From positions 1 through 64,000 of the forward strand of contig QPGO01000026.1 of NCBI GenBank assembly GCA_008632985.1: a DNA stretch of 64,000 nt, written 5' to 3'. The stretch is from Psammoneis japonica (taxonomy: Eukaryota). This document shows positions 10,331-35,498 of this stretch, piece after piece. The position numbers and the translations under genes are program-made. The notes below the pieces were generated by a model. The model saw only the letters and a program-made list of their open reading frames with translations, searched no databases and was not told the origin of the DNA. Every line of letters starts with the position of its first letter. The first letter of the stretch is position 1.

Positions 10331-13019
10331 CTGTTTTCTCTTGCGTTGGAGAATAACTAATCTCACTTGTATTCGGTCTCTACGATGTTTTGGTGGGTTT
10401 AGTCTTGATCAATCTTTTTAAGTTTCAACTTAGCAATGGTGGTGGCTCTGATGCACAATATTTGTTTTCTTTTATGTTGGAGTAGGTTCAGTTTTATCTC
10501 AGCAGTGGTGTTAGCTCTGCTGCACATACCCACTGCGTCTCCTGTGACTGTGAACATTATTTGTTTTCTCATGTTGGAGCAGGCTTAGTTTTGACGAATC
10601 TTTCTATTCAGCCAGATGTTCGTGCGCAATTTCTGGTGCACCGTAGACTTCAGCACGAATTCTGCTGCGGTCGGATTCAGCTTGGCCGAGCCACATTTTC
10701 AGTCGTCAACATTTTCTTCAAAAAGCTGAGCATCACAATGAAAGAAGAATCAAACTGTCACAAGTCCCTGCAGGTGGGGAACATGGTTTGGGGGGTCCAA
10801 GTGCAATTTTGAACACCATGTCGCGGCAAGATGCGCTCGGGTTGTGTTGGGGCATTGCCTTTCCATGTCATGCCACATCGCATCACGTTGCCCTCATCTG
10901 CCCATGATTTCCTTTCTTCTCTGGACAATGTGTGCTGTGTGATCATTGTTTGAATTCCAAATCACAACCCATGCCATGTTTGTGTGTGATGCATTGAATT
11001 CTCCTGCACCATCTCTCGCCACTTGTTGCGGCAATGGGCAAACTTCTCCTTGTTGTTTGCACTGCATGGGTGCCTGAGGCAAGACCATGCAATTGGGCTG
11101 ACTTGGACAGTCCACAACTCATGCATCCCCAACAGACTCTTGCTCAACCCATCCACTCGTCCTCCCAAGGTGACAGCATTGCGTGCTGTGTCCAACCATC
11201 AACCTTGTTGCTGAGCCTCCCCCAATGACTCTGAGTCCAACAACAAGACCATGGTGCTTCCAATTGATGTGCTAAATGACCACCATCCACCGGTGTGCCG
11301 CCACCTGTGGACAGTCCAGGGTGCATTGCTTGTCTTTGAACTCTTGTTGGTGGAGCAATTGACTGCTGGAAGTGCACTTGGGACTCTCCAGCCAGCTGGC
11401 AGCAGTGCATGATGCATCTGCCCCACACAAAGGATCAAGCACCTCTTCCTGGTGACTTCATGGCATGGAACTTGCTCAATGTGCAGGAAAGAACAGCTGC
11501 CATGGTGAGCTCATGCCCAAGGCTCTACTCTGCTTTGACCTTCTGGAATTTCTGCCACCCCCACCAGGCACAACCAAGCTTGCGCGCAATGAGAAAACCC
11601 TCAGCATCATTGTTGAGATGCGCTGCTGCCAAAACATCAGGATTTCACCTCACCAGCAATGGGAAGGGAAGGTGCACATGCCCTTCCTGCACGTGTTGCA
11701 GCAGCACCCAAGAAAGGTAAGAAAAGCTGTGCAACACCAGCGGTGCAATCCTCCAAAGTCAAACACTCCGTGTGTCAACCACCAGCACAACAGCTGCTGC
11801 AATGGGCACAAAAATCAACCCCGCCATTGTCAGACATTCAATGCCAAGACTTGAGCAAGCACATGTTCTTGGCAGATCAAGCTTCAGGCCAATCAACGTG
11901 GCCACCGTGTCATGGCTGGAAATGGGCACAATGAACACAAAAGTTGCTGTCAGCACACCTGATGCAAAACCAAAATTGATGCCAAAGATCTGCAGGACCA
12001 AGGCCAAGAGCACCTTTGTCAGTTGTCTGGTGCCCATGTTGGCACTGCCTCTGCTCACAATTTCTTTGTTGGGAATTTCAGTGCCCCCCCCCCCCCCTCT
12101 TGTCTTGTTCTCAGTGCATCATGTTGCATGACAGGAAGACAAGAACAGCTTGCCTCCTCCACTGCTTCCAGATGAAGAGGCAAATGACAGCTTTTGCTTG
12201 ATCTGCTGTCCCCAGTCTCATGACAATGATGGCTGCTGCATTCTTGGCAGTGCCAAGAATGCCAAAAACATGGGTGATTGGGCCACAGATGCTGGCATGA
12301 CTCTGTTTGATGAAGCCACTTGTGACAGAGGGGGGCAGGTTGTTTTGTCAAATCAGCTGATGAGGATGTCCAGCCATTGCTCCAAAAGGTGGAGTTTGCC
12401 ACAAAATTGTGATGCTGCAGCTTTGCGTGCCCCCCCCCCAATGGTTGCAAGAATGCCAAGGAAATGCAGGCCCTCAAGGCACTTTTTGCTGCTTTTCATC
12501 TATTTCCCAAGCATTTCTGAGAGCAGCGGGTGGCATCAAAATCCCATCAGTGTCAAGCGCTGCAGTTTGTTGTCAACCATGTTTTCCCACATGAATGACA
12601 CAGTGCTCGCTGTCTTCACACAGGCATCCACTGCCATGAGGAGGCAAACAGCAGCAGTTGTGAAGGCAGAAATTTTGCATTGAAGAGCTGCTGTGTTGGC
12701 ACCAATGACTTGGCTGCTGGCGCCAAGAACATGTCCATGCAGGCTGACACAACAACACTGAATTTGTGCCAGGTGTGAGCAACTGCTTGCTGGAGTTGTG
12801 CCATCTGAGGCACTGCCTTTCAGGCCGCATCTGCAGAAAAGCCAGTTGCAAAAAAAAACAGAGCAATTGTGCAACGTTGCAAATCATGGGTCAGCAACAG
12901 CCAGCAGAGGACAACTGCAAACCACTTCTTTCTAAAGCCTGACATTGAACAATGCAGCTGCACTGCTGTGTGGAGCCAAAACAAGCAAGTCACTTCTTGA
13001 GGTGTGAATGGTCTGTGCA

Positions 13020-13640
13020 AGCCTCCGTGTTGTCTTTGAATTTTAGCACACTTGCGCAAAGTGAGCATGTTGCCACTGAAAAAACTTGAGTCACCTGCAC
13101 TCTCCAGAACTGCAAATGCTTCCTCTCTCCAGCAACAGCTGTCATTTCCATGACTCACAAACATGTGCCACAAAGCTGCCACAACTGCACCAATCCTGCA
13201 ATGGTCTGACAACTTGTTTTCCAGCAACTGATGTTCATGCTGCCCTGAACCAAGACAATGTCCTCCACAGTTGTTGAGTGGGATTTTTGGGTCTTCTCTT
13301 TTCCACACATCGTCCCTCAGCAAAGGCTCAAAAAAAGACATGTGAAGAAATGCTGGATGCAAGGAATTGCCCACTTCCCACATTTCTCTTGCCCAACTTC
13401 TTCCTTCCTTGTGCCTCTCAGGAAGCAATTTGACACTGAATGATTTCCCTTTGGGGCAAGCCAATCTGTGTGCGATGACAGAATGACCTTTCCCACCACC
13501 AACATCAACAAAACTGCCAGCTGAGGTTTCACTCATGTCCATCACATGGGGGGCCAAAGAGCATGTCCAAAGTGAAATCAAATCCCAGCTGATCTCTGCG
13601 GGAAGTCCTGTCACCTCCTTGTGTTGCTCCAACAGTGGTT
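13020..13640 (-). pseudogene. class I SAM-dependent methyltransferase relic, DOT1-like
   Basis: Within ORF 12820-14226: SFVDVGGGKGHSVIA (motif I, DxGxGxG), SFSVKLLPERH, FLHMSFF, KIPLNNCGG, RIGAVVAAL, ordered as in DOT1-type enzymes; DNA is almost devoid of TpA. Confidence 0.45.
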
Positions 13641-14942
13641 TGTCAGCACTGAGCCAATGACACACCAATTTCCAGCACCATCTGTTTCTTGTTTTGTGAG
13701 GCATTGCTTGAAGTGATTTTGTGCTGCGTGGTGTTGCTTGGAGGGGATTTGTGTGGCGTGGCAGTGCTTGCAGGAGGAGAGAGTGAAGGTTGCATTGACG
13801 GCAATGGCGTGACTGCATTTGCTGCTTCAGAATCATCTTCATGATCTTGTTTCTTGGTTTCCCTGGCCTCAGAAAAAGCACTGGATCACACCGGTGCACA
13901 CAAGCACCCTTAAACTGCTTTTGCTGGCACAACTCCTCAGAAACTGATGCAATGTCAAACACCCTGTTGGAAAAGGATGAATCAACAAAAGGCCCTGGCA
14001 TTTGGCAATCAACTTCGGAAGCGGGCTCCCAGGTCAAAGAAGCATTCGTGAGAGATGTGGTCTCCTTGAGAACCTTCATGTTGCTCTCTTGGCATGATTT
14101 GTTGAATTCAATCATGCCATGGGTGTTTCTTTGCTGAGCCTCCAGCATGAGATCTTGAAGCTTGTTTTGGGAGTCATCACCCATTTCAAGCAAGAACCTT
14201 GTTTTGGGTGTCTTCGGCTGTTTCATGAATCATCTTTGAACTGTTCTGGAAGAGTTCTTTGTTCTGTGCCTGCATTTCACCTCTCATTTTCTCACTTTGC
14301 TCTGAGTTGTGATTCAACACTTGCGTGAGCATGGCGTGGACAAAGGATTCATGATGCTGCCAAGGAGGGGTGTCTCTTCCTCCACCAAAGTCCAAGGCAC
14401 ACACCGCCTGAGGAGTGCCTGGCACAGGGCTGGGTGAGACCCGTTGAATTTGGACAAGAGTGCTGGGTGCACTGCAAGGTGAAGAAGCAAACATGATGGG
14501 GGGCTGACGAGAAAAGTGGCAAACATGATGGGGGACTGACAAGCTGCCAGTGCACTGCAAGGAGAAGCAGCAAACATGATGGGGGGCTGATGAGCTGCTT
14601 GTTCTTCCATCTCTTTGCGGGTGCATTTTTCAACTTTTTTTCTTCTTGTGGCATCAAAGATCTGAGGTGCAACAGGAGTTTTTTTTTGTGTTCCTTTGCT
14701 TGGCCTTCTTGGCTTCCTCTGACTTGCAGGCTGCCAGAACTTCCTCTGAAGGCTGAGATGGAGGGAGGGGATGCAGAGAATCAAGCTCAGCTTTCACACA
14801 TTGTTGGGCAATCAACACATTGCTCTGCATCAACGTGTTGCTCCTTTGACTGACGGTGGATGCCGCCAAAGTGTCACTGTCGCAATGTGCGTTCATGACA
14901 GCGAGAATAATGAATGTGACGAAAGCAGCAAATGATGACAAC

Positions 14943-15218
14943 TGACAGGATTTGAACACGATTTAGGTGCGCGCGAAATGTCGCGCACTGTTTGGTTTAC
15001 CGCGCACAGTTTTGTGTGCTTTAGTTCCGCGCGTTTGCGCACGATGTAGTTTGCTTTCGAGCCACAAGGCTCACAAGAACAATGACAGTAGCCCGATTGT
15101 ACCGACTTGCACGTCTTTCGGCTCCTGTGACGGTCTCTGAGCGGAGACTCATCTGCTGTTTAGACAGCAGCAAGGAGTTGTTGTTTGAATTCTTGCCATT
15201 TGCCTTCAATTTCTGTCA
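14943..15218 (+). repeat. left LTR-like repeat
   Basis: TGACAG...CTGTCA termini; inverted partner at 18241-18516. Confidence 0.9.
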
Positions 15219-17296
15219 CTCAGATCAGACAAAACGAGGAGGAACGGCGGGGCAACATTGCAGGACAATGCAAACAAGTTGACATTGCCTTCACTTCCTG
15301 AGCGAAGGTCGCAAAGACTGATGGCCATCTGTTGGTTCTTGGAACGGTTGCCACACTGGGCTGCTGCCAGAAAAGCAGAGCAGCACTCGTGCAGGGTGGC
15401 GTGGCGTTTGCACGACTCGGGGAACAGAGCAAGCATGAGTTCAAAGGCACAAGCGGTGGTCTTGTGTTCCACCAATCCGATTGCAAGCTCAGCTGCATCT
15501 CCTGAGAGACTGATCCAATTGGAGAAATGAGTCTCAAGGTGCAAGCCTTCGGGGATCGGATTGGAGCAAGGCATCTTGTGGTGCAAGGCTGCAGATGTCT
15601 GATTGGGGCAACCAGTTCCGTGCTGCAAGACTTCTGGGATCCAAAAGGACTTGCCAGTCTTGTGACATGAGTCTTCGGGGATCCAATCAGGAGGCCAAGT
15701 CTTGAGGTGCGAGACTTGGGGGATCCAATCAGGAGGCCGAGTCTCGAGGCACGAGACTTGAGGCATCCAATCAGGAGGCCCAGTCTCAAGGTACGAGACT
15801 TGGGACATCCAATCAGGAGACCTGGTCTCGAGGTGCGAGACTTGGGGCATCCAATCAGGAGGCCCAGTCTCGAGGTGCGAGACTTGGGGGATCCAACCAG
15901 GAGGCCCAGTCTTGAGGCACGAGACTTGAGGCATCCAATCAGGAGGCCTGGTCTCGAGGTACGAGACTTGGGGCATCCAATCAGGAGGCCCAGTCTCAAG
16001 GTACGAGACTTGGGGGATCCAACCAGGAGGCCCAGTCTCGAGACACGAGACTTGGGGTATCCAATCAGGAGGCCCAGTCTCGAGGTGCGAGACTTGGGGG
16101 ATCCAACCAGGAGGCCCAGTCTCGAGGCACGAGACGTGGAGAGTCCAGTTGGGAGGCCTGGTCTCAAGGCACGAGACTTGGAGCATCCAATCAGGAGGCC
16201 CAGTTTCGATGTACGAGACTTGAGGGATCCAATCCGGAGGCCTGGTCTCGAGGTACGAGACTTGGGGCATCCAGTCAGGAGGCCTGGTCTCGAGGTACAA
16301 GACTTGAGGAATCCAACCAGGAGGCCCAGTCTCGAGGCACGAGACTTGAGGCATCCAGTCAGGAGGCCCAGTCTCAAGGCACGAGACTTGAGGCATCCAA
16401 TCCGGAGGCCCAGTCTCGAGGCACGAGACTTGAGGCATCCAATCCGGAGGCCTCGTCTCGTGGTGCGATGCTTGGAGGATCCAAAGACAACGAAGCTGCT
16501 TGGGTGTCCTGAACTCCCCATCTGATGAACCGGTTGAACTGTTGTGAACAGATTCAATGATGGGAAAAGGAGGCTCCCCATCAGGAGATACGAGAAGCAA
16601 GTTGTCATCTCCATCACTTCCCAAACGAAGGTCGTGAAGGGTGACAGCGGTGGACACGTGGAGGTCGGCAGCACATGGTTTGCGGGGTGCAAAGGCTGCG
16701 GCTTTGCAAGCCATGGGTGGAGTGCCCCAACTGGTTTCGAAGTGCGGGCCTGCGCAAGGGCTGCAATCCTGCACTGGGCCGAGTTTGCTTGCGGGCGGGT
16801 TGGTCAAGACATGCGGGGCGCGACTGACACCACTTCTTGGGGACACCTGAGTGGTGGCACAGTGCAAGGCTGGTGTCAAAATGGTGCTGGGTTCACCTGG
16901 TTTGGATGGCAAGGGACTCGGCACAGGTGCGGAGGGTGCTGCACCAGTGGCTGGAGAGGTCAAGCAGTCCGGGCCAAGGCGATGGTCGCGAAATTCCTCG
17001 GGTGTGAGCAACTGGGGTTCATTGGTCACATCATCACCGTTGCAAACTTTGACAAAGTAGAAGCTGATCAAAGCTGCCAGGAGGTTTCTGTAGGTCCATG
17101 GCAAAGGAACTACATTGGCGCCGTCTCTGTAAGTGAGGGCATCAATTTGGGTGGGTGAGAATGTGAACAATTCCTCACACGATTCAATCCCATTGATGGA
17201 CAGGGCAGAACGAAGAGGGCTGTCATCGTCTTGATTGAGCACAGTGCCTAGAATGCATTTGAAGCTTTCGGTTTGTTGCTGTCGCGTGAGAACCAT
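15206..17296 (-). CDS. copia gag-like N-terminus fused to a 14-aa repeat tract
   Basis: ATG at 17296 (MVLTRQQQTESFKCILGTVLNQDDDSPLRSALSINGIES...LTPEEF) resembles diatom copia gag starts; then ~19 x S[YCH]LETGPPDW[MI]PQV; no pol motifs. Confidence 0.55.
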   Translation of the reverse strand: MVLTRQQQTESFKCILGTVLNQDDDSPLRSALSINGIESCEELFTFSPTQIDALTYRDGANVVPLPWTYRNLLAALISFYFVKVCNGDDVTNEPQLLTPEEFRDHRLGPDCLTSPATGAAPSAPVPSPLPSKPGEPSTILTPALHCATTQVSPRSGVSRAPHVLTNPPASKLGPVQDCSPCAGPHFETSWGTPPMACKAAAFAPRKPCAADLHVSTAVTLHDLRLGSDGDDNLLLVSPDGEPPFPIIESVHNSSTGSSDGEFRTPKQLRCLWILQASHHETRPPDWMPQVSCLETGPPDWMPQVSCLETGPPDWMPQVSCLETGPPGWIPQVLYLETRPPDWMPQVSYLETRPPDWIPQVSYIETGPPDWMLQVSCLETRPPNWTLHVSCLETGPPGWIPQVSHLETGPPDWIPQVSCLETGPPGWIPQVSYLETGPPDWMPQVSYLETRPPDWMPQVSCLKTGPPGWIPQVSHLETGPPDWMPQVSHLETRSPDWMSQVSYLETGPPDWMPQVSCLETRPPDWIPQVSHLKTWPPDWIPEDSCHKTGKSFWIPEVLQHGTGCPNQTSAALHHKMPCSNPIPEGLHLETHFSNWISLSGDAAELAIGLVEHKTTACAFELMLALFPESCKRHATLHECCSAFLAAAQCGNRSKNQQMAISLCDLRSGSEGNVNLFALSCNVAPPFLLVLSDLSDRN
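15678..16460. repeat. 42-bp minisatellite, ~19 units, each with a 7-bp hairpin
   Basis: Unit ~ atccaatcaggaggcccagtctcgaggtacgagacttggggc; period 42 (atcc at 15681 and 15723); AGTCTCG-n5-CGAGACT inverted repeat; no unique spacers. Confidence 0.95.
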
Positions 17297-18240
17297 GACG
17301 GAGGACGGTGCAGCAGAAACAAAAGACAGGAACCAATCTAGAGCGCGGTCTTGACTCGGAGTTTTGACTTGCAACTTGGCTTGAAAAAGACTTGACTTGA
17401 GCCAGACTTGACTTGAAATCTTGGACCATCTTAAAATCAGAAGTCGCCGGGCTGTGACATCCCATTCGTTGTCAAGTGCTAAACTTCCCATCGGTCCGTA
17501 GAGTTGTGCCGGCACGTCCGAACTTGCAGCTGGCGGCGCTTTGGGTTGCTTGCGAGCGGAGTGGCAGGTTGTAAACCCCTGCAGGCAAGCTGACCAGAGG
17601 TGGACAAGACCCCCGAACCGTTCTCATTTTATGTCGGTTGGATTTCCCGATCAGGCTGGCCAGTTGACGCAGGCGTCAGGCGCTGTGGACGAACGAACAA
17701 ATGTGGGAAAACACCCTTGCCCCAACGCAGGCTGCAATCACGGCTGCTTGCTCTCACAGTCATCCTCGTGGACCTGGTGGAACTGCGGAGCACCAGCAGT
17801 CCGGGGCAGATCAGGTGCAACAGACTCGGTGTGCTTGTAGAGTGGCAGCAAAGCCGCAGTCCAAAGGGTGGGTTCAAGTTCTTGGCCGTGAAGACACACA
17901 GGTCCTCAGCAACAAAGATCCTTGAATGTGCGGGGTTCTTGACCGTCAACCGTTGAATGGGTGTGTCAAGGGATGAGGATCAAGGATGGACTTGGACACA
18001 GCCGTTGAATGCATGTCTTCAGCAACAAAAGGTGGCACAATCAATCCAGACATCCAGCGGCAAGGAGACTTGATGGTGACGTTAAATTCCTGCTGATGCC
18101 TGGCATTGAATGCACGCAGACTTGCCGATGTACGTAGAACACACACGGAGGTCCACGCAGAATTGAAGTGGCATCGTTGGTAAATCAACGACGACAATGG
18201 CGGTTGCTCAATGGGTTGACAATGAGCAAGACTGTCAATC

Positions 18241-18516: not shown

Positions 18517-19642
18517 ACAACACGACAGTCTGTTGCAAGCTTTGTGCTGCAATGGCTCTCTCTCTCTCTCTTGTTCCCAATTGTGATGAGATTCTTCTCT
18601 GCTCTTCTTCCATCTTCTCCGTGTTCAATTCAGTGCAACACACGCACAACAGGCAGGCAGTGCTGGTTGAATCAAATCGATCATCAAGTCTTTCTTCTGC
18701 CCTGTTTGCTCTCTCACAACAAGAATGAGGCACGGTCAAGATCATTGAAGAGCACTTTGGTGCAATTGACAAAAATGAGTGTGAGAGCCTCATGCATGCT
18801 GTCAATGAAGATGTGTTTTTGTCTGGCATGAGTCCTTCCCAAAAAGGTGGCTCTGGTCTTTGTGGAAACATGGGCTGGTTGCTGAGTGGTGATCAGAACA
18901 GGGGAACAGGGGCGTGGGTGGATCTTTGGCCCCTCTTGAGAGACAAAGCTTGAAGACATGGGTGCTTTCACTCCAATTCACAGTCATCTTGCCATTCATG
19001 CAGCAAACAACAAAGCACATCATTTCACGCACGCTCTTTTTGCTGCAGCATTTGTTGGATGTGTGACAAAGTGACCCAGGCATGGCTTGTGACTGGAAGG
19101 GATGCTTCCTCTCACGTGTGAAAACAAGTGTTCAGGAGGAAACAATGTGTCATTTCCACCTCAACGCTGGAAGCAGGAGCTGTTGAACCCCGTCTTTTGG
19201 CCCCACCCATCAATTTTCTAGAGCTGTCACCTTCCAAAAATGGTGCCACTTCAGGGGCAACTCCAACTCAGGATCAAATGCAACCTTGTTGTTCCTTTCC
19301 ACAGCCTCTTGGCAGAGATCACCATTTGCTTTGATCAAGGCAGCTCCAATTTTCTCATGATGCTGCTGGTCATTCTCAACAATTTGCAAGAACATGCTTG
19401 TGAGGAGGTCTTCATGTCTGTGCCAACAAGGAGCATCTCCTCAGCCTGGCGCAGCAGGGCTGGGTGAGACCTGTTGAATTTGGACAGGAGTGCTGGGTGC
19501 ACTGCAAGGTGAAGAAGCAAACATGATGGGGGGCTGACGATCTGCTTGCTCCTCTTGCAGCATCTCTTCACAAACACGCTTTTCCAATGGATGGCTTGAG
19601 GATGCTCCACTCTTGCAAGATGCAATTGGAGTTTTTTTTTTT

Positions 19643-19755
19643 NNNNNNNNNNNNNNNNNNNNNNNNNNNNNNNNNNNNNNNNNNNNNNNNNNNNNNNNNN
19701 NNNNNNNNNNNNNNNNNNNNNNNNNNNNNNNNNNNNNNNNNNNNNNNNNNNNNNN
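19643..19755. other. assembly gap
   Basis: run of N. Confidence 1.
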
Positions 19756-22067
19756 TTTGACTTGCTTTTGAAAGGGGGGTTTCTTTGAATGGTTGTCTTG
19801 ACACATCTGCTGCCATTCAGCATTGCTGGGTGGAGATGCACTGCTCTGTTTCAATGCGTTGCTCCATCAAATGCCTGTGGACGCCGCCGAAGTGTCGCTG
19901 TTGTAAGATGCCTTCATGACAATGAGAATGATGAATGTGAAGAAAGCAGCAAATGACGACAATGCAACAGTCTGTTGCAAGCTTTGCATTGCAACAGCTC
20001 TCTCTTGCTGCTCCTAATTTGATTTTTCTCTGCTCAGCTCTTCTTCCATCTTCCAAGTGTTCCACTCAGCATGACAGGCAGCAGGCAGTGTTGATCAAAT
20101 CAAGTTGATCATCAAGTCTGTCCTTCTGCCCTTTTTGCTCTCTCACAACAAGAGCAAGGCAGCTGCAGCAAGAAAAAAACTTTGGAGAGCAAAATGGAGG
20201 GAATGGTTGCTGTTGGAGTTGCAACAAGGCAAAACAGTTGCCTCACAAGCTGCCCAAAAATGTGGCACTGTCAACTGGCATTGACGCAGATTCACTTTTT
20301 GCTTGTCTTGGGTGCCATGTTGGGCAAGTTGCACTCGGCACTGTCACTTTGACACAAGTGAATTGCGGGCATGTGGTCGCATGAGTGAGCCACAAGTGCA
20401 CTGGAATGCTCAGCACAAGAAAGTGGTGGAAAGTGAGAAACCACATTGACACTCTGTCGGGTTCTGACAAGAACTGTTGCCGTCTTTCATCTGCCACTCT
20501 TGCAAAAAATGTGAGGCTGCATGGCTGATTGAAAAGAGGTGGATTCCATCACAGAAGAATGTGTGAATGTGCTTGCGATGGACAGTTCATCTGTCTCATC
20601 AAGTGCAAGGTCACCCCACCTTCTTCGCCAATGCCGAAACACCTTGACCAGGCTTCTCGACATGAGCAACGATTTTTTTTGGCAACGTCTGTTGGCTTTG
20701 AACACCTTGTGGTCAGCAGCATGGTTGGTGGTGCAGGTGGATCAACTGCGGTTGGCAGAATGCTGTGAGCATGGCCAAATTGACAACCATCCTTTCGTTT
20801 CCAAGTTTCCGGCACTCTCCAGCACTTGGAGTCTGCAGCACTTGGAGTCTGCACCAAGCAATGAGATGCAGCCTTGGCAAGTCCATTTGAGCCCATCTCA
20901 TCATGCCAGGTGCAAGCATGGGAGATGCTGCTGCAAGAATTCAAAAACAAGCTGAGCCCCTGGTGTGCTTCACCAGAATTTCACATGGGCAATTTGAGGA
21001 CAAAGAGAAAGCTGTCACAGCCAATCTTTGTTGCTGGCCTCAGCCTTGAAAGAGCTGAGGCTGAAGTGGAAAGATCAAAAAGTCCACACTGTCCTCAACT
21101 TCAATGACAACCATGGATGCACCCACTGTTTGGAAAAAATTCCAGCCCTCTGTCGTGACAGTTGAATTCTCAGCAAGCGGAGACCAGCAGGTGCCAGGGC
21201 AAATTGGGCACTTGCACTCGTGGTGGTGACCTGACTTGCTGATGCAATTGGAAGAGCAGAGCAGTCACCAGCTGGTGGCACAGATTGCAAAATGATGGCA
21301 GCAGAGGAATGTGGCTGGGCTGCAAGGTGCGCTGAACATCTGTCAACAAGTCTGAGTTCAAACCAGAAAACACAAAACCAAAATTCCACATTCAATGTGC
21401 TGCTGCACTTCCACCTTGTGACTCCAGCAACAAGCTGACCCACACACCCAGCACACAAACAGTGCGGCAGGAGCACACAGCGATTGGCCAAGATCGGCGC
21501 CACCCTCGGGCGATGCGGCGCCAAAGTGTGACCTCCAACCACACGTGAGTCCAAACCAGAGCTTGGCACATCTGCTTCCACCACGTTCGATTGTTGACCA
21601 TGTTCTCTTGATTGTGACACTATGAACATCCTTGTCCCAGATTCCAACAACCTTGTGAGGCACCAGGAGTGTGCTGCTGTTGCTCAAGCCAGTCAGCTCT
21701 CCAGCTGGCTCGGCAAGACAGGGGCAAATGGAGACAACGTGATCACCTTTCATCCAATTTTTTTGTTCAGCACAAGCACATCAACAAAAACAGTGCAATT
21801 GCAATGACAGTTGTTTGACAAAAATGAGTTGTATGATGGTTCTTGTTGATTGAGTCAAACCAGCTCGGCATCTGTTTCAATGGGTGAGGACCCGGAGAGG
21901 TTGGTGGCACAATAAAAAGATGGCCCATCGCTCCACACTGGGTTATGAGCATGCCCTCCATCGCACCTTGAAGGCTAAAGCTGGAGCACGAACAACAAAC
22001 AAATAATGTAGGGCTATCAACGAACAATCGGCCATTTGGTGCACCCATCCGCGAAGAATAAAAAACC

Positions 22068-23699
22068 ATGAGCAGCAAGAAGAAAATTGTGTGGGTGCTA
22101 CAGGGAAAGACAGAGCATCAGGCTTTTCTTCTCAAAGAAGATGGAGAGGAAAGCTTTGTAGAGTGGTCCTCCACCCAACAAGCCGAGTGGGTAGACAGCG
22201 CTCTGGTTCGTCTTGAACTCCCCCCTCGATGTCGGGATGCTTCCACAAGGGATGACAATCAAAGAGTGCCTGAAGCCAGCAGGGAACACTCAAATGCAAC
22301 CAAAAGGAGTGGTTCTTGTGATGCAAAAAATATGCCGAGAAAGAAGAAACTGCAACAGTCAAAGTCTGGAAAGGAACAACAACAAGAGGATGCCAAACCG
22401 GAGTCATCAAATGCCAGCAGGAGTTCCGTCACCTTTGAAGAGGTTCTCCAACAAGCCAGGAACAACGTTCCTTCTGATGCTGCAGAGGGATCCATCAAGG
22501 CCTGCATTGTCTTTCCCAACAACAAAAACTATGAAAGTTTTGAGAGTGCCTTTGTGGCAAATGATTGGCAAGTTGCAATGCAAGAAGCTGAAAATGTAGA
22601 TGAAAATGGAAACCCAGAACCACGTGACCTTTGGATGCTTGGCACCAACTCAAAAGACAAGATTCGAGGTGTGTATGAACATGCCTGGCGTGACACTGGG
22701 GATGAAAAGACGTTTTTTTCTGGAGAAAACCCATGGCAGAATCTCTGGATTTGCAAGAACGCCAAAGGCGACATCGAAAACCATGTTTTGCAAGCGGAGT
22801 ATCACTCCATTTACAAATACATAGTTCTGAGTCCTTGCTCCCAAGGCTCAGGATTCAGATTGACAGAGGGACTTGTTGAATTCTTGGAAAGGAAACTAGA
22901 TACCTGGAAAGCGACTCTAATTGCACCCTCGAAGAGCACAGTTCTTTCGACTAAAAATTCGACTAAAAAGGAACCAAGTCTGAAGGTCTTTCTCGACAGT
23001 CTTCTCTCTTTGATGGCCCTTTCAGTGCGCATTGGAATAGTGGATACACGGGATTTCAATAGGGAGGTTTGGGCTGGTGCTGCAATTTTAGAAACTGATG
23101 CATCAGGCAAAGAAAGCATACTTGCATATGACGCAATTCGATTCAGTCGAAAAGGTCAAGGAGAAACACATGCGGAAGAAAGGGTTTTGGCAGAATTGCA
23201 CAGTAAGCGAAAAAAGGCAGAACGGACACAAGGAAGTTCTATGCACATGGCTCTCATCGTGGTTCATGCAATGGGTGGAGGACAAGGAGGCTCAATGTGT
23301 GGAAGTTGCATTTGCGCACTCTCTCAATTTCATGCAGACTGGTGTCTAGACCCCGGTAAGCTGGCAGTTGTGTACCCAACACGTCGTTTCAAGCGCCACG
23401 AAAGACCAGAAAAAGGAGAATGGGTGTCACCACGCACTGCATTTTACGACATGGTGAAGGACAAGAAAAATCACTTTAACTTGCTACAAGACATTGTATA
23501 CCACAACAGTAAAATGAACAATCACGGAACTTCTGGATGCATTGGAGAGGATGTGATTGGACATGATGTGAGCACTGTTGTTCAGAGCCTACATGACAAT
23601 AGCTTACATGACGATGACGCCACTAACCATGCTTCGCATTGGAAGCACTGTTGCTACCATGGCACGAATGAGAAGCATGATTTCCGACTCCCTTCCTGA
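22068..23699 (+). CDS. 543-aa protein: Tudor/chromo-barrel-like N-terminal domain plus C-terminal TadA/CDA-fold zinc-dependent deaminase domain
   Basis: Intact ATG-TGA ORF. N-terminus IVWV..HQAFLL..SFVEWSSTQQAEWVD. Deaminase motifs REVWAGAAIL (R332; cf. TadA REVPVGAVLV), HAE (H368, 23169), LIVV, MCGSC (C411/C414), LAVVY. Confidence 0.75.
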   Translation: MSSKKKIVWVLQGKTEHQAFLLKEDGEESFVEWSSTQQAEWVDSALVRLELPPRCRDASTRDDNQRVPEASREHSNATKRSGSCDAKNMPRKKKLQQSKSGKEQQQEDAKPESSNASRSSVTFEEVLQQARNNVPSDAAEGSIKACIVFPNNKNYESFESAFVANDWQVAMQEAENVDENGNPEPRDLWMLGTNSKDKIRGVYEHAWRDTGDEKTFFSGENPWQNLWICKNAKGDIENHVLQAEYHSIYKYIVLSPCSQGSGFRLTEGLVEFLERKLDTWKATLIAPSKSTVLSTKNSTKKEPSLKVFLDSLLSLMALSVRIGIVDTRDFNREVWAGAAILETDASGKESILAYDAIRFSRKGQGETHAEERVLAELHSKRKKAERTQGSSMHMALIVVHAMGGGQGGSMCGSCICALSQFHADWCLDPGKLAVVYPTRRFKRHERPEKGEWVSPRTAFYDMVKDKKNHFNLLQDIVYHNSKMNNHGTSGCIGEDVIGHDVSTVVQSLHDNSLHDDDATNHASHWKHCCYHGTNEKHDFRLPS

Positions 23700-23830
23700 A
23701 ATGCTCACATCTGGAAAGACAGTCAATGTCAGTGATGCATTGGTTGACTCATCTTGCATTAGAGGTGCTTTTTTTAATTTAGATTGCATTTCTATGGTGG
23801 CTCACTCACTCACTCAATTCACTGCAATTT

Positions 23831-24071
23831 GAGTGGAGCCACAGTAGCTCTAATCTCTCCACTGAGCTAGGGTTGGGGGTTAGGGTCCATTGAAATTGAT
23901 ACATTCAACGCTCTGCACAAATAAATATTCACTCCTAAACTCCTCATTGGCATGGTAACTTGTTCAATCAATCTATTGCAATTAGAGTGGAGCTAGCTCT
24001 AATCTCTCTGAGCTATTGAAACTGATCCATTCAACGCTCTGCACAAATAAAAATCACTCCTAAACTCCTCA
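23831..24071 (+). repeat. imperfect direct duplication
   Basis: gagtggagc..tagctctaatctctc..tgagcta..cattcaacgctctgcacaaataaa..tcactcctaaactcctca at ~23831-23946 and ~23985-24071. Confidence 0.8.
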
Positions 24072-24514
24072 CTCACGATCCTGTCGCAGAGGGTTTTGCC
24101 CTCAAACCAAGCAGCTGTAAGGGACTGCACAACACCGCATGCCGCATAATTGCATGACATTCCTGCAAAAGATTTTGTTTGATGCTTCCACCTTTCAAGA
24201 GGAGTGTGATTTCTTATACCCCTCCAATCCTGATGCTAGGGTCATCTCCCATCCACAAGGAACCAACAGAAGGCAAAAGACACAGCACAGAAAAATGGTT
24301 GTCAACTCCCCTGACATGATGATGCACCATGTTAAATAGAACTTTGAGTTGCAAGCACTGGGCACTTGGTCATCAATTGCTACCCATTGCTCCCTGCCTG
24401 ACCCCACCCTGCCAGCACCTTTTTTTTGTCAAGATGTGGCCTTTCACCATCAGATTGTCAAGATGTGGCCATTTACCATCAGAATTAATGTCCTGAGATG
24501 GGCACTGCGAACCG

Positions 24515-24832
24515 CAATTTTCACATTGGCTCCCCTTTTGCTTTTAAAATTTTCCCAGACTGTTCAAAGAATTGATTCACAGCAGATTTTTGACACAAGC
24601 GAACACAAAGAAAAAGAAAATTTTTGACAGAGAGCAATAAACCTTGTTGGTGGTACTTGTGCGTTGTGGCAATTTTCACACTGGCTCCCCTTTTGCTTTT
24701 AATTTTTTCAAGACTGTTCAAAGAATTAATGATTCACAGCAGATTTTTTCTTTTGACACAAGCGAACAAAAAGAAAAAGAATTTTTTTGACAGAGAACAA
24801 TAAACCTTGTTGGTGGTACTTGTGTGTTGTGG
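24515..24832 (+). repeat. tandem duplication, ~155-160 bp x2
   Basis: caattttcaca.tggctccccttttgctttta...aataaaccttgttggtggtacttgtg.gttgtgg present twice. Confidence 0.85.
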
Positions 24833-25939
24833 ATGCATCAGGGTTGAGGAGCAGCAGTGCGATCCACTTGCAAGTTACCCGATGCGTCTCCCGTGACCGT
24901 GAACGTTTTTGCTTTCTCTTTTATATAATGGAGTAGGTTTATTTTTATTTTTAGGTTTCAATGGTCTGATGCATTTCTGTTTTATAATGGAGTAGGTTTA
25001 GTTTTGTTTCAGTGATGCAAATCAAATTTACAAACAGAATGGAAACAGCTTTGCAAGCAGAATGGGGTTATCGCTGATACAAACAAAAGTTACGAACAGA
25101 ATGGAGAAAGGCTAACAAATTGAAAATGGATCTCGTTTAATTTAGTTGGGCTTCCATTTCTGTTAGCGAAAAAGAACTTGAATGAGAAGACAGTTGAGAA
25201 AATGGTACAAAAAAGCCTGAGATGGACAGCCAAGCAATTTGCTATCATGCCCAATTAAAATGTATTCTTATTGACTGCCTGAATGAATCACCTGAAACAA
25301 ATTGAACATGGAAAGGCTAAGAGAATTTTTTCTGTGAAGTAACACACGACCTATCATCGGTGCCAGCCGAAAAAAGAAAAGAATAGACCAAGAAGAGAGG
25401 GTTATTCCTGATTGCATAAACAAGGGTATGGAGATTGGTCGACAAACCTTCAAATCGTTCGTGTGCGGTAAAGAATGAATTGCAGCGATTAATCTTATTG
25501 AAAATGTCCATTACAAAAATGGCCTTAGATAGGCAGAATAGCATAATGGTGAGAGCCAAGGGGTGCCATCTAAGAAGGGCGGCATCCTACGCGCAGAATA
25601 AACTGGACTCAGAGGAAGTACGGTATTGACAGACCGAAAAGTATGGGAACTTTCTCGTAGATTCTACGAGACAAACGGGCGATAGACAGACAATTGCGAT
25701 GGAAGAGTTGTCCCGTCCCCGTGCTTTTTGAAATTGTGTACAAATCCTACAAAATTATTTTACCACCAATGAGCAACAAAAATATTGCCACATTGGCTTA
25801 GCTGAAATTTAGAATGCCTGAAGTGATCACCTGAAACAAATTGAACACAGAAAGGCAAAAGCTAACTCATATTTTCCCTATGATAAAGGGGCAACGAGTT
25901 GTGAAGACAAAAGAATTGAGTAAATTAACAGAACAAAAT

Positions 25940-26177
25940 TGGTCTTTCAACTCTTGCAAATCGCTCTTGTGCGGTCAAGAAGGACCTGCGTAGAGCTTAG
26001 TACCTATTCCATAAATGTGAGATCCCCATTGAGACAATCAATCTTATTGCCAATATCTGGTCTTTCAACTCTTGCAAATCGCTCTTGTGCGGTCAAGAAG
26101 GACCTGCGTAGAGCTTAGTACCTATTCCATAGATGTGAGATCCCCATTGCGGCAATCAATCTTATTGCCAATATCTA
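25940..26177 (+). repeat. near-perfect tandem duplication, 118 bp x2
   Basis: tggtctttcaactcttgcaaatcg...atcttattgccaatatc twice; TpA retained in both copies. Confidence 0.92.
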
Positions 26178-29846: not shown

Positions 29847-30085
29847 TGTTGCAACCCATCCTTCTGGTGGCTGTTCCAGAGCCACCTCAGTCCTCCAAGG
29901 TCTGATCCTGAGGCCAAAATGGACAAGCTTGTTGTCACAATGCTTTCCAAGAGTTAAAAGAGAACAGTGGCTGCTTCCATCGGCTGTTTTTGTTGCTTCA
30001 CGTGGAGCACATGAGTGCTGACGCATGCGTCTTCTTCACACCATTTAATTTTGGTGTTTGAACTTTTAGCTCACCATTTCCAACA
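29847..30085 (-). repeat. LTR A (3' LTR)
   Basis: TGTTG...CAACA; minus-strand PPT-like cagcaggagtg adjacent. Confidence 0.92.
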
Positions 30086-33000
30086 CACTCCTGCTGACCA
30101 ATGACAAGATTCTTGCCATTTCCAAATTTGACCATCTTGGGCACTTGGATGTTCATGATGGCTTGATGATCAACAATGAACTTTTTACCAACCACTGGTT
30201 TGGTCGTGCAATCTGCCATCATCTTGTCTGTTGGGCAGAACTTGATCTCAAGTTCTCCTCGCTTGATGAGGTCAGCGATGCAAAAACACTTGATGTTGAA
30301 ATGTCTCGTGCGTTTGCCCGAGCTGGCCTTTCCATTTTGTTCCAGTTTCACGCAACTTTGGTTGTCTCGATGCATGATGTTGCGCTCGACTTCAAAACCT
30401 TGAGCTTCAACAAAACGCTTGGTCCAAAGGACCTTTGCCAAAACGTCGTCTCCTGCGACGATCTCTGCTTCTGCAGAACTCCTGGTGTTGATCTTCTGCT
30501 TCGTGCTGACTGATGTGATGACACCTTTTCCAAGGGTCATGGCAGAACCTGTGTGACTTTTATGGTCCGGATGGACTGTGAATGCGGCATCCGTGTGCCA
30601 CTCGATGATGACTTTGTCTCCAGCCGACATGACTGCGACATCAAGCTGGGTTGTCCTGAGGAAATTCATGAGCCTCGCCAGCTTTGGCCAATCCGATTTG
30701 TTCGGATCCTTGACCCTGGTGGAGAGAAAAGCAGTGCCAGGCTGAATGTCCTGTCTGGCTCTCTTGCACACAAACATGCCCTTCATCACAAAAGTGCAAA
30801 ATGCTCGAGCACGCTTGAGATCTAATTTCTTGGCTGTCTCATCCACCTTGTTGAGCTTCTTGCTCCACGGGCAATCCACGTCACCCGACAATTCTTCTGG
30901 GAATTCCTTGAAGAACTCCTTGGCCATTCCTTGCACACAAAGCACCATGTCAACTTGCAGTGCTCCTGGAATGGAGCAATCTAGAGTCATGGCCAGACAG
31001 TCGTGCCTCTTTCCACGCGTGACTTTGACCTTTCCGATCTCATCCGCATGAGTTTTGTCTAACCAAATCTTGAATTCATCGTTGACCTTGCTGTCAACGT
31101 GACTGGACTTCAAATCATCCACATGCCATGTCACCGTGTGTTGTTTTCCATTCACGATGCGGTTGGCGACACATGGATCACAAGGATCAATCTCAAATCC
31201 AATTCCTTCGATGTCTCTGCGGAACTTCTTGTGACAAAGAATGGAGGACACCAGCACTCCGCAGAGCGCCTTCAACATTTCAGCGTAGAGAACCTTGTGT
31301 TTGCCTTCACACACGATGCAGTCCTGGCAAGTGTCTGGATCCAATTCCAGCAACATGTCCACCATCCTTCCACGGATCTTCATGATGATCTTTTCATCCT
31401 TGACCTCGATGTCCGTTTGCACAAATGCGCTCGGGATGTCCGCTGTCACAACGTCTCTGCCTTGCTTGGCATCAATCACTCCTGCAATGAGAACAGATTC
31501 TGTGGATGCTGTCGGACTGGCGGTTTCGTCTTGGTCCATGTGCTCTCGCTGCGTGCTTCCGTTTGCACACAACCTTGACTTGATTCGTCCATCTCTCTTC
31601 TCTGTGAGAAACATGAGGCTCTCCATGGCTCTCTTCCTCTCCAGAGGAGTCATGTCATTGATGTGAATGGGTTTGAAAACCACTCTGTCATGGATTTGCT
31701 TCAGCTCTGACACTGCTGACTTGTGGCCTTCTTCTCCAAACTTCTGGAGTCCTCGTGCCAAGCTGCAAGTCTGAACAAATTGATGTGCTTCTTCATCAGT
31801 GGAAATCGTGCTAACCTTCTCGTTCCACTGACACATTGTCGTGGCCATGATTCTGGCCGTTTCTAAGCTGCACTCTTCTTTTGTGAATGAGCTTGAGTCT
31901 GTAGATGGCATTGGCAGTCTCCCAATCTAACTGGAGGTTTCAGAGTCCTTCCTGCCCTGGATGTAGCAACAGGCTCTTCTTGGACACTTTCTTCGGTTTC
32001 ACTCTGCTCCTCTCCAGATTCGTCATCAGATTCCAGGTCTTTCATTTCGCCGATGATCTCTTGCACTTCCGGAGAGTGTTCCTTCTCTTGTTCCAGCCTC
32101 TGTTGTTCATCAATGTGGTCAATCATGTCGTCGATTTCTTGTGAAATTCCGCTGCTGTCTGATGGTTGAGAACCAACTTCGTCATTGTCTCTGAGATGCT
32201 CATCATTGGAGGTTTCTTCTTGAGTCTCGTCTTGTTCTTCACTGATGTGGCTGGCTTCTTCATCCAATTCTTGTTCTCGAATTGTGTCTTGCAGCTCTTG
32301 ACTAACTCTGTCACAGTCTCCCCAGTCTGGCTCTTCTTCCTCATTGTCTTCAGTTTCAATGTCTTCTTCTAGATCACAGTCTTCGTCTTCAAATTGATCT
32401 TCAGCATGGTCCACTCCTGCAAGCCAAGCACTGTCGTACAAAACAGCTCCAGCACACTTCTGAATCTTGAGACCGTTGGGCATCTTGTTCATTTCAGCCA
32501 AACGATGAACCTGCTTTGTGATGGCGGGAGTGATGGGCACAGGGGTGACCTTGCGATGAGTGATCTTCTTGCCGGTTTGCAAGTGCAGCAACTCATGTCC
32601 AATCTGGTTGCTGTCGGTGGGGCGCAAATGAATGCAATCCAAGGTCCGTGACTCTTGGGTGTTCTTGGGGTCCGGGTCATTGTGAGCTTGCACACAAGTG
32701 CCGGACGTGATCTTGCAGCTCTTGTCACAGTCTAGATTCTTTTGATGGAGAATCATTCTCGGACTGCAATGTTTGGAAACGCCGTGCTTGGCTGGAAAAT
32801 AATTGAGCTTCTTAGCAGCTTCAGTGACCATGACTTCGACCATGAGTTTTGGCAGATGCTTGAATGGCAGCCAATGATGGACTGCCCTGGCACGTTCTTG
32901 AATGACTCGGTTGTTTCTTTCGGCTTCTGGGACATGCTCCTGAGCATTTGCGTAGTTCATCTTTAGATCAAACTTGTCTTCTAGTGCATTCCCAATGGGC

Positions 33001-35260
33001 CTGAATTCGTTGTCGCAACGAATGCGTGTGACCTTCAAATCGGCCTTGTTGCAGACTTGCAGCACATCTTCCAGAGCTTCTTGATGAGTTGGTTGGGTCA
33101 AGTCCTTGAGCGGTTGTGCCTTGCGATAAAAAATGTTTCGTGACACTGTGGTGAGGAATGGCAATCCATTCACCTTGAGGCCGTCCAGGCAAAGAGTGAC
33201 CTTGTGCTGTGCTGCAATGAGCTCCTTCGGGATCTCCACACAGTCTTCCACAACTGGCTCCAGCTTCTGCCTTGTGACCTTGCCTTTTAGACTTCCAATG
33301 TCTGGTCCAAAAATCTTCTCGGCCAAATCTACATCCTCCGTTGTGACGGGATTGTTCTTGATGCTGTTCACGCAAATGATGGCCTTCAGATCATTCACGG
33401 TTGGGTTTCCCAATGCGCGCAACAATTCCCCAGCCCTCTTGGCTTTCTTGAACTGTCGTGGAGTGCAGAACTTCTTGTTCTCTTCCACACTCTGCACAAA
33501 TTGGAGCTGAGTTCCAGTGTCATTTATCTTGGGCTTGTAAACGTGCAGCCCTTTTCCATCCTCCTCGAACCCAACCTTCTTGTTGGGGAGATGAGCGGTG
33601 AATGCGTTGTCTTGTTTAGAATCACTTGTGATTCTGTGTTTCTTCTTCATGTCAGAGTGAGCAAAAATGTTGGTGATTGCATCTGGGTCAAACCAAGTCT
33701 CGCCAAACCCTGGCACCATGGCCTTGTGTGTCGTGACCAGGACTCCGCTGTTGGTGTGCAAACGCATGGCTTCATCCGACGGAGGATGTCTGTGATGAGC
33801 TTCTCATTGCAGAAGATTGTGGTTGTTGTGGTTGTTGTGGTTGTGGACTGGTTGTCCAACAAAATCCAGTCTCTCATGCTGCCAGATTGATCCTGGTAGA
33901 GAGACACATCGATGTGCATGCCAGCCCATCCTGAAACAGTGGATTTTGTTCCAGTGGATTCTTTGGTGGAAGAGTTGGCTGCACTGGCATCGTCACTTGG
34001 CTGAGCATTGCTTGCTTCTTGCTCAGCTTTGGCCTTGTTGATGGCCCATTCTGCTTGAGGTTTTCCTTGCCTTTCCCAGCACTTGTTGGAATTGTGTCTG
34101 GCCTTGCCACAGCAGCAACACTTGCCTTCTAACTGAGCGAAGGACAGCGTGATTTCTTGGTTTTCTTCTTGTTTCTTGGAGTCAGAGTTGTTGTTTCGAT
34201 TGTTCCTGTTGCAGCAGTTGTCAGGCTGACCAACGTAGTCAAAAGTGTGGTTGCTCAACACCGTGTTGGCTTCCGCAACAGACTTGGGATGTCAGTCGTT
34301 CTTGAGGGACTGCTGAGTGTTCAATCCTGTTAGAATTGATCCGCACTTGCACTGGTCTGCGTTCTCCAAGTGCGCGCAACCCATCAATTGGCTGAGCGCC
34401 TTTTCTTGACACTTCTTGATGGAATCCGCATTGTGCTCATCGCATTCTGACATGCCTTGCACTGCCTTGGTGAGGACAATTGGTCCTCCAACATGAGACT
34501 TCATGATGTCCCTTGCAACCCTGAATCTCTTGGCACAATCTTGGAGACTCTCCTTCTCCTTCTGCTTGGTTTCCAGCACCGCTCTCATTGAATCTGAGAT
34601 GACAGCCATGTCACACCTGTGCTCTTGGCAGTTCAATGCATGCTCCTTAATGGCCTTGAGCAATTCAATGGGATTGTTTTCAATTTTGGTTTGGAACTCG
34701 GTTCTTGCTTGAATCTTGTTCTTCATGGCCTTGGAGCATCTCTCCCAGAGCAAAGCACAAGCCTTGATGAGGTTGTTCTCATGAGTTTGGGTCCTCTCAA
34801 TGTGAGCATCAAATTCTGTCTTGAACTCAATTTCACACTGTTTGTTCAATGGCACATCCACCTTGTCATCTCCTCCAGTCAAGCTGACCTGCAAAGTTGG
34901 CTTCTTAGAACTCATGTCACATGGAGTGCAAGTGTTGAGTGCAGCTGCAATGTCACCTCCAAACTCACAAGTCTTCTCAATGTAGTTGATGATGAACTCA
35001 GTGGCAATCTGAAAATCAGATGCTTGCTTGGCACTTCCAACATGGCAGACACAATCATTGATGCCCTTGTGGCTTTGCTTGCCACTCTTGTTTCTCCTTC
35101 CTGAGGGTCCTCTTCCTTGGCTTCTGTTGCCAGTTCCACCTCTGCCTCTTCCACTCATGACAAAAAGGCAAAGCAGCAAAATGTCTCACACACTGTGAGA
35201 ATGACTCTTTTCTTTCTTGCTTTCTTTTCACAGCTCTCAGCTGGATTGTTCTCTTTTGGC
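30086..35260 (-). pseudogene. copia gag-pol copy A, frameshifted
   Basis: ORFs 34292-35179, 33647-34261, 31863-33767, 29998-31911. Confidence 0.92.
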
Positions 35261-35498
35261 TGTTGCAATTTGTCCTTCTGGTGACAGTTCCAGAGCCACC
35301 TCAGTCCTCCAAGGTCTGATCCTGAGGCCAAAATAGACAAGCTTGTTGTCACAATGCTTTCTAAGAGTCAAAAGAGAATGATGACTGCTTCCATCGGCAG
35401 TTTCAGTGCCTCACGCAGAGCACATGAGCGCTGGTGCGTGCGTCTTCTTCGCGCTGTCTAATTTCGGTGTTTGAACTTTTAGCTCGCCATTTCCAACA
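35261..35498 (-). repeat. LTR B (shared central LTR)
   Basis: Aligns with LTR A and C; PPT of copy B on one side, leader of copy A on the other. Confidence 0.92.

Follow-up and report, generated by a model that had tools for sequence, protein, structure and literature searches.

In a 64,000-nt stretch of Psammoneis japonica DNA (NCBI GenBank assembly GCA_008632985.1, contig QPGO01000026.1, positions 1 to 64,000 of the forward strand; hereafter, the window), we identified an open reading frame (ORF) at positions 22068..23699 of the + strand that is best explained as a nuclear gene of a diatom-type organism, functional and consisting of a single exon, that encodes a predicted zinc-dependent deaminase. 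As judged from its homologs, the C-terminal ~215 aa of the 543-aa product (P0001) is a rare, previously unannotated and lineage-restricted family, and its structural model establishes a deaminase fold with a complete Zn/Glu signature. Our verdict is that the family forms a new clade within the deaminase superfamily, with an architecture nearer to that of nucleic-acid deaminases than to that of cytidine deaminases (CDA), and that it does not belong to the TadA family. As to function, we tentatively favor a role for P0001 as a chromatin-directed polynucleotide mutator deaminase, acting on either base in genome defense, a proposal to which we give somewhat less than an even chance of being right.

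The ORF begins with an ATG at 22068 and ends with a TGA at 23697-23699, and an in-frame stop codon is located two codons before the ATG. Over the same 1632 bases, the coding frame contains the terminal stop only, whereas the other five frames contain 13-33 stops, including 8-24 TGA codons. The longest open frame in 300 first-order Markov simulations of positions 20001-26000 was 163 codons on average and 290 at most, as compared to the 545 codons observed from stop to stop. A previous reading of this DNA, made without database searches (the sequence-only reading), had described an uninterrupted 543-aa ORF, and the frame coordinates, stop counts and simulations bear this out. The lack of an internal in-frame TGA, against 8-24 in the other frames, supports a real gene. 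Among sequencing runs, the stretch was represented in two DNA runs from one sample, in which a 1459-base contig (22211-23669) was identical to the window. Sequencing depth was ~60-145 over the gene, which is single-copy-like, and 10^4-10^5 over repeats at 17-18.6 kb, indicating that the gene does not belong to a high-copy element.

When 1.84 billion representative proteins were searched exhaustively with phmmer, 36 relatives of P0001 were obtained at E <= 1e-3, of which 13 align to the C-terminal part (~aa 310-540) and 23 to the first ~60-120 residues only. The top relative, P0002 (E 1.6e-64), shares 42% identity with P0001 over aa 152-535. When the 36 relatives were compared to Pfam at E <= 0.01, no family was found for the deaminase part, and no Pfam deaminase model was matched by the 14 members of the deaminase alignment at E <= 10. 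The motif strings named in the sequence-only reading were all present in P0001 (REVWAGAAIL, aa 332-341; HAE, 368-370; MCGSC, 410-414; LAVVY, 432-436). In the 14-sequence alignment G408 and C414 were invariant and S360, H368, A369, E370, S409, C411, A417, F421, V434, N484, and V505 were nearly so; P0001 keeps the consensus residue at all 13 of these columns. The HAE codons (23169..23177, + strand) specify H368, a predicted Zn ligand, and E370, the predicted proton shuttle, and are followed by E371 (HAEE); HAE occurred in 12 of the 12 relatives that cover the column. Similarly, the CxxC codons (23298..23309, + strand) specify the predicted Zn ligands C411 and C414. Of the 13 relatives, 12 have the first Cys, which is replaced by Arg in P0004, and all have the second. 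The CxxC is preceded by G-G-S-M, so the Pro that usually stands before it is missing from P0001, as the sequence-only reading had remarked, and Pro was likewise found at this position in 0 of 13 relatives. The near-invariance of the motifs across 14 sequences argues that they are not there by chance.

Other searches with the protein returned little. P0001 matched nothing relevant in Pfam, no match to P0001 or its family was obtained from NCBIfam at E <= 1 (P0001, P0002, P0003, and P0009 scanned), and a PADLOC scan was blank. Searches of PDB sequences by phmmer and by profile gave chance matches alone (Tat, cupin, HAUS4, WDR63) and no match to TadA. A word-indexed homolog search found nothing with P0001 by itself and only P0011 with the alignment as query. 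The ESM Atlas had no usable match to whole P0001, and no relative was confirmed in metagenome contigs scanned with P0001 and P0004 or in viral contigs scanned with P0001.

For the C-terminal region (aa 301-543), AlphaFold2 supplied with the alignment of 14 sequences yielded a model with a predicted local distance difference test score (pLDDT) of 85.8 and a predicted template modeling score (pTM) of 0.87; a single-sequence AlphaFold2 model of the full length was unusable (pLDDT, 33.6). The deaminase-fold domain covers aa ~304-515 (22977..23612, + strand), and the elements of the model follow one another as helix, strand, strand, helix (with HAE at its start), strand, helix (with CxxC at its start), strand, two helices, strand, and helix. 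The core order beta1-beta2-helix2(HAE)-beta3-helix3(CxxC)-beta4-helix4-beta5 is present, with strands (E) and helices (H) at E33-43, E49-61, H69-79, E91-99, H112-125, E133-140, H155-173, and E176-180 of the model; HAE opens helix 69-79 and CxxC opens helix 112-125. Against the PDB, Foldseek returned only APOBEC3/AID chains down to rank 44 and then the Rib2 deaminase, with weak scores (best E, 6.4e-4; template modeling (TM) scores, 0.27-0.39). No viral structure in BFVD was matched at E <= 1e-3, the best match having an E of 4.6e-3 and being followed by weak matches to giant-virus deaminases of the dCMP type. The top lists of both Foldseek and VIA-align are made up of deaminases. Although the single scores are moderate, we regard the modeled fold as established on the strength of these uniform match lists and of catalytic motifs that occur where the fold requires them. 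The sequence-only reading was right in its deaminase assignment at the level of the superfamily. Beyond the domain lies a His/Cys-rich C-terminal tail (aa 521-539; 23628..23684, + strand) with the pattern H..C..HC.Y....H.F, which is kept in most full-length relatives, has a model confidence of 61-83, and possibly forms a second metal site.

In order to place the family, clade markers from Table 1 of Iyer et al. (2011; PMC3239186) were set against the family alignment. The markers listed there for TadA/Tad2, namely EPCxMC, an Asn conserved in strand 2, and a C-terminal helix with conserved E/F, were absent. In place of EPCxMC, the family has G-G-S-[MVL]-C-x-x-C with no Glu-Pro, and P0001, which reads C-G-S-C, lacks a Met between its cysteines. 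Strand 2 of the family ends in a conserved S-x-K-G and lacks a conserved Asn; TadA/Tad2 proteins have a Glu before strand 1, whereas E333 of P0001 sits in a variable column; and the E/F helix that follows strand 5 in TadA/Tad2 has no conserved equivalent. DNA-editing TadA variants (ABE8e) were included in this comparison. With these markers missing, and with no Pfam deaminase model matched, the label "TadA-like" given by the sequence-only reading is not supported. Its inference of adenine as substrate is not supported either; nothing in the sequence points to adenine, and the nearest structural relatives are cytosine deaminases.

With the AID/APOBEC-like deaminases, the family has in common a deaminase fold carrying a helix between strands 4 and 5. 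Several of the markers tabulated for that group have counterparts in the family: HxEE in helix 2 (HAE[EQ] in the family, HAEE in P0001); a charged end of strand 1 (E342, conserved as E-[TV]-D); a Ser at the second position ahead of the first Cys; a loop after strand 4 that is extended and basic (in P0001, a 14-residue Arg/Lys-rich loop at aa 441-454); and Met/Leu closing strand 5 (at the M483 column, Met in 9 of the 13 sequences that cover it, query included, and V/L/I otherwise). Both groups are also lineage-restricted and fast-evolving, with a plausible role in conflict. However, the AID/APOBEC strand-3 Trp and SxS-PCxxC motif (the family has one Ser and no Pro) have no counterpart, nor do the Phe of the first extra helix (the family helix at 501-512 has no conserved Phe) and the Trp between the terminal helices. 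In addition, the architecture differs, in that the family has a module at its N-terminus, a domain in the middle, and a His/Cys tail at its C-terminus, and the Pfam APOBEC, NAD, and SNAD models were not matched by any of the 14 members. A "novel AID/APOBEC-like" clade has been described from nematodes, Nematostella, Micromonas, and Emiliania (PMC3239186; PMC5889660). The main text of Krishnan et al. (2018; PMC5889660) does not contain the words diatom or stramenopile, and Iyer et al. (2011; PMC3239186) mention stramenopiles for other clades only, although the supplements of both papers may list further members. In our model, the pair of helices that separates strand 4 from strand 5 suggests that the family belongs to the "helix-4 division," which is the division holding the polynucleotide deaminases according to Iyer et al. 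(PMC3239186). In total, the polynucleotide-type features of P0001 comprise the strand 4-5 helix, the basic loop at aa 441-454, HAEE, E342, and the Met/Leu/Val/Ile that ends strand 5.

The CDA are small homotetramers that act on free nucleosides, whereas P0001 is a 543-aa multidomain protein. Members of the CDD/CDA group (e.g., yeast CDD1, 1r5t) are described as using CxE, where our family has HAE, and as having a strand 4-5 hairpin without helix 4 (PMC3239186), in contrast to the helix pair of the P0001 model. Another group considered was the stramenopile-restricted deaminase-SAM-Tudor-array proteins (PMC3239186), which, if the module of P0001 is Tudor-like, resemble it in joining a deaminase-fold domain to Tudor-type modules. 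In these proteins, the deaminase is N-terminal, CDD/CDA-derived and listed as inactive, with SAM and 1-22 Tudor domains behind it, while P0001 has a C-terminal deaminase, an intact active site, and a single small module without a Pfam Tudor match. Membership of P0001 in this group is therefore ruled out by domain order, clade and active-site state.

The N-terminal module of P0001 (aa 5-52; 22080..22223, + strand) has the pattern VWV..GKTxHxAxLL ... LVxWxST...EWV....V..EL and recurs in 23 other representative proteins, 25 segments of which could be aligned with it. Within an alignment of 21 module sequences, W9, G13, H17, A19, and W33 are invariant. Most relatives have a run of Arg (RRRR) directly after the module, and in P0001 a basic patch, PRKKK (aa 90-94; 22335..22349, + strand), lies in a low-complexity linker and may act as a nuclear localization signal or as a nucleic-acid-binding element. 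The description of the first ~50 aa as a discrete module followed by a basic PRKKK stretch was upheld. Downstream, a middle region (aa ~140-300; 22485..22967, + strand) is common to P0002, P0003, and P0005, for which the phmmer matches start at aa 152, 66, and 54, respectively; it had no match in Pfam. A hidden Markov model (HMM) of the module, run in a search space of 15, matched P0005 (E 1.2e-8), P0038 (E 9.4e-11), and P0003 (E 5.2e-4) within the deaminase family but none of its other ten members. Module and deaminase thus occur fused in two or more other branches as well, and the pairing is conserved within one branch, so it did not arise by chance at this locus alone.

The same module also heads FAN1-type nucleases. 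It precedes VRR_NUC in P0015, P0026, and P0031, the last of which clusters with an annotated Fanconi-associated nuclease of Phaeodactylum tricornutum, and FAN1-type nucleases accounted for 4 of the 17 matches in a further module search. Animal FAN1 carries a ubiquitin-binding zinc finger at the position where diatom FAN1 has the module, and this analogy hints that the module may be a recruitment domain. Diatom FAN1-type nucleases that start with the module were P0015, P0026, P0031, P0044, P0047, and P0050. A Seminavis robusta "expressed unknown protein" also carries the module, and P0013 and P0030 have it as a tandem pair. Phaeodactylum and Seminavis are diatoms, which supports the lineage assumed in the sequence-only reading. 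As for the fold of the module, the chromo-barrel or Tudor-like type proposed in the sequence-only reading is plausible but unproven. When the profile of 21 modules was compared to the PDB, the best two matches were chromodomains of cpSRP43 (E 0.27 and 0.28, not significant), aligned over the "LVxW...EWV" segment, and the language-model neighbors of the module at 0.79-0.84, below the 0.9 level, included Tudor-knot, Agenet, MBT, and PTM/DIR17-Tudor clusters. None of the 21 module sequences matched a reader family in Pfam, and the single-sequence full-length model placed three short strands at 8-11, 18-22, and 28-32 with a pLDDT of about 30-36 over aa 1-50, which is not a confident model. That the module reads methyl-lysine is speculation.

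Most of the 64-kb window is degenerate copia sequence in which the observed/expected ratio (o/e) of TA is 0.02-0.2, with an excess of TG/CA. The TA o/e was <0.25 in 46 of 64 1-kb windows (72%), often 0.02-0.1, with a TG/CA o/e of 1.5-2.2; examples are 11001-14000, 19001-22000, 41001-45000, and 58001-64000. Islands with a TA o/e of about 0.4-0.6 were found at 7-10 kb, 22.7-29 kb, 46-47 kb, and 51-57 kb. Of 19 long frames scanned, five were Ty1/copia remnants (RVT_2 in four, gag-pre-integrase in one), and all five were located in TpA-depleted stretches. The flank upstream of the gene (20501..21620), at the edge of the mutated repeat domain, contains no TA at all and has a CpG o/e of 0.16-0.40 and a TG/CA o/e of ~1.8. 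By 300-nt block, the TA o/e of the ORF was 0.21 and 0.10 in the first two blocks and 0.36-0.57 in the later, deaminase-coding blocks, the latter resembling the unmutated islands, and mutation may have spilled over into the low-complexity linker of the gene at the domain edge. It had been claimed that the gene stands next to heavily mutated DNA, and this is true, as the upstream flank demonstrates; with 46 of 64 1-kb windows depleted, however, adjacency carries no weight as to cause. Co-location was therefore dropped as evidence for a mutator role.

CpG was also depleted in parts of the window, with an o/e of 0.05-0.25 in 11001-14000, 41001-44000, 59001-60000, and 62001-64000, but was kept at 0.7-0.9 in the TpA-depleted stretches at 1-7 kb and 47-50 kb. 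Since CpG is lost in some TpA-depleted stretches and kept in others, two separable mutational processes feed TG/CA. A pair of tandem copia-like copies (29847-35499 and 35261-40908) is 94.3% identical over 5670 columns and differs at 286 sites, 266 of them transitions. Among the 142 transitions with clear context, 82 were of the CpG type, 34 of the TpA type (TpA<->TpG/CpA), and 26 of other types.

A TpA-specific process of this kind has been reported from mutation accumulation lines of Bigelowiella natans, where, according to the preprint of Mettrop et al., two regions of integrated viral DNA had 231 mutations, of which 230 were A->G or T->C, all of these at TpA, at a rate ~1000 times background (bioRxiv 10.64898/2026.01.13.699255). 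The enzyme was not identified, and the authors suggest an ADAT2 homolog (10.64898/2026.01.13.699255). The window and B. natans are alike in TpA->TpG/CpA change, with loss of TpA and gain of CpA and TpG, confined to foreign or repeat DNA. They differ in that B. natans is a chlorarachniophyte in which mutation was measured, while the window shows a compositional footprint only; that a TpA o/e of 0.02-0.15 in the window is far more extreme than the 0.45 given for the nucleocytoplasmic large DNA virus (NCLDV) region of B. natans; and that the Bigelowiella candidate is a canonical ADAT2 homolog and not a member of the P0001 family. Full-text literature searches found no report of such a TpA signature in diatoms and none of an adenine-specific repeat mutator. 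The process is also reminiscent of the repeat-induced point mutation (termed RIP) of fungi in its repeat-restricted, dinucleotide-specific transitions and in its kilobase-sized skewed domains beside normal genes, with possible leakage. RIP, which needs DNA-methyltransferase-like proteins, converts CpA to TpA (C->T), introduces stop codons and makes the DNA AT-rich. In contrast, the process in the window destroys TpA, removes stop codons and raises GC.

If P0001 is indeed a chromatin-directed mutator, the module and basic stretch would recruit it to nuclear chromatin or nucleic acid, and the deaminase domain would act on polynucleotide bases, most probably in the DNA of repeats or invading elements, as a mutator in genome defense. 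Adenine as target would give TpA->TpG/CpA, and cytosine or 5-methylcytosine would give CpG->TpG/CpA; signatures of both types are present in the window. An orphan, lineage-restricted family with an intact active site and a module also carried by a DNA-repair nuclease makes P0001 a good candidate, and it is a reasonable suspect as the source of TA->TG mutation in the surrounding repeats. Several observations speak against this reading. The 13 C-terminal relatives all derive from metagenomes, transcriptomes or assemblies, and no family member was found in an annotated NCBI or UniRef proteome. The top structural matches by Z were free-nucleoside cytidine deaminases, and no RNA run was listed as containing the gene. 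TpA->TpG/CpA change removes TAA and TAG codons, or makes TGA from TAA, and turns no sense codon into a stop; open frames therefore survive in TpA-mutated DNA, and an open frame is weaker evidence of constraint here. Moreover, the sequenced sample yielded a second set of contigs, with 13 listed differences from the window between 22255 and 22919 (aa 63-284), nine of them nonsynonymous and four synonymous, and in one contig the T-run at 23068-23070 (codon 334) was longer by two T. These contigs may represent an allele or paralog under relaxed constraint, or an assembly error.

The model put forward in the sequence-only reading, in which a TadA-like DNA adenine deaminase generates the TpA->TpG/CpA signature after a Tudor/chromo-barrel has read a heterochromatin mark, is in our view unlikely. 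It draws on the confirmed deaminase fold and intact active site, on the extreme TpA loss and TG/CA gain in the copia remnants, and on the 34 of 142 tandem-copia transitions of the TpA type, and TpA-only A->G change of silent foreign DNA is documented in B. natans (10.64898/2026.01.13.699255). The cpSRP43 chromodomains that top the PDB profile list (E 0.27) and the Tudor-knot, Agenet, and MBT neighbors of the module (0.79-0.81) are in keeping with its reader domain, but these hints are below significance and 0 of 21 modules matched a reader domain in Pfam. Also, the TadA markers are missing, the sequence gives no indication of adenine, and adjacency is meaningless with 46 of 64 kb depleted. No phmmer relative was found in the NCBI/UniRef proteomes, a result that covers annotated Bigelowiella only if the library does. 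A version of the adenine model that dispenses with TadA, namely that the family is a "reverse RIP" effector, a chromatin-targeted DNA adenine deaminase of AID/APOBEC-like or other non-TadA stock that converts TpA to TpG/CpA in silenced diatom retroelements and reads chromatin state through the module shared with FAN1, appears fairly improbable. Alternatively, an AID/APOBEC-like deaminase of cytosine or 5-methylcytosine in DNA or retroelement cDNA could contribute to the CpG decay of repeats or restrict viruses and retroelements, unrelated to the TpA signature. This is consistent with the several features of AID/APOBEC and "novel AID/APOBEC-like" proteins in Table 1 of Iyer et al. (PMC3239186) that the family shares, with the CpG o/e of 0.05-0.25 in several repeat stretches, and with the predominance of CpG-type changes between the tandem copia copies (82 of 142, the largest class). 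On the other hand, the strand-3 Trp, the SxS-PC motif and the Phe of the first extra helix are missing, no APOBEC, NAD or SNAD model in Pfam was matched, spontaneous deamination of methylated CpG accounts for CpG loss without an enzyme, and TpA-depleted stretches with a CpG o/e of 0.8-0.9 make the two signatures separable. We consider this the most improbable of the readings weighed here.

Two readings without a mutator role were also weighed. One, which we think rather unlikely, is that P0001 is an RNA-editing or RNA-modifying deaminase (of tRNA, rRNA or mRNA). Housekeeping RNA editors are widely conserved, whereas this family numbers 13 among 1.84 billion proteins and 0 in annotated proteomes, and its module is held in common with a DNA-repair nuclease. 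The other, to which we assign only a small probability, is that P0001 has little or no present function, being a decaying lineage-specific gene or a mobile-element passenger that stays open because mutation removes stops, or else that it is a small-molecule or nucleotide deaminase. Decay would be compatible with the TA-poor 5′ 600 nt of the ORF (o/e 0.10-0.21), with the nine nonsynonymous against four synonymous differences and the 2-base insertion in the second contig set, and with the location of the gene between repeats, no recognizable gene being present for 5 kb downstream. It is countered by the 8-24 TGA codons in the other frames as compared to the single, terminal TGA of the coding frame, by the retention of all 13 conserved family positions, and by the TA o/e of 0.36-0.57 in the deaminase-coding part, which is like that of unmutated islands. 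The depth of ~60-145 over the gene, versus 10^4-10^5 over nearby repeats, further argues against a gene of a high-copy element, and a multidomain protein with a targeting module is unlike the tetrameric CDA.

It is only recently that an alga was shown to hypermutate foreign DNA by A->G change specific to TpA (10.64898/2026.01.13.699255), and the window shows the TpA signature at an extreme level. P0001 is a concrete and cheaply testable candidate that lies outside all curated families. Should the "reverse RIP" reading be true, the enzyme would be the first natural one known to hypermutate adenine in genomic DNA, and would provide a natural TA-context scaffold for adenine base editors that is unrelated to TadA. 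Even if P0001 is a cytosine or RNA deaminase, it would represent a new clade and a new architecture in the deaminase superfamily, and its module would be a new, small targeting module for diatom chromatin and repair biology.

Other features were also observed in the window. A tandem array at 15612-16484, with self-matches at multiples of 42 bases and 82-86% identity, is situated inside a GC-rich (0.54-0.59) frame of 805 codons at 15206-17623 on the - strand that had no match in Pfam. Positions 19643-19755 consist of 113 N, an assembly gap that is spanned in one DNA contig by diverged sequence of equal length. Finally, a 1057-codon frame at 53450-56620 on the - strand, in a region where TpA is normal, encodes ankyrin repeats close to the N-terminal end (Ank_2, E 4.8e-28).

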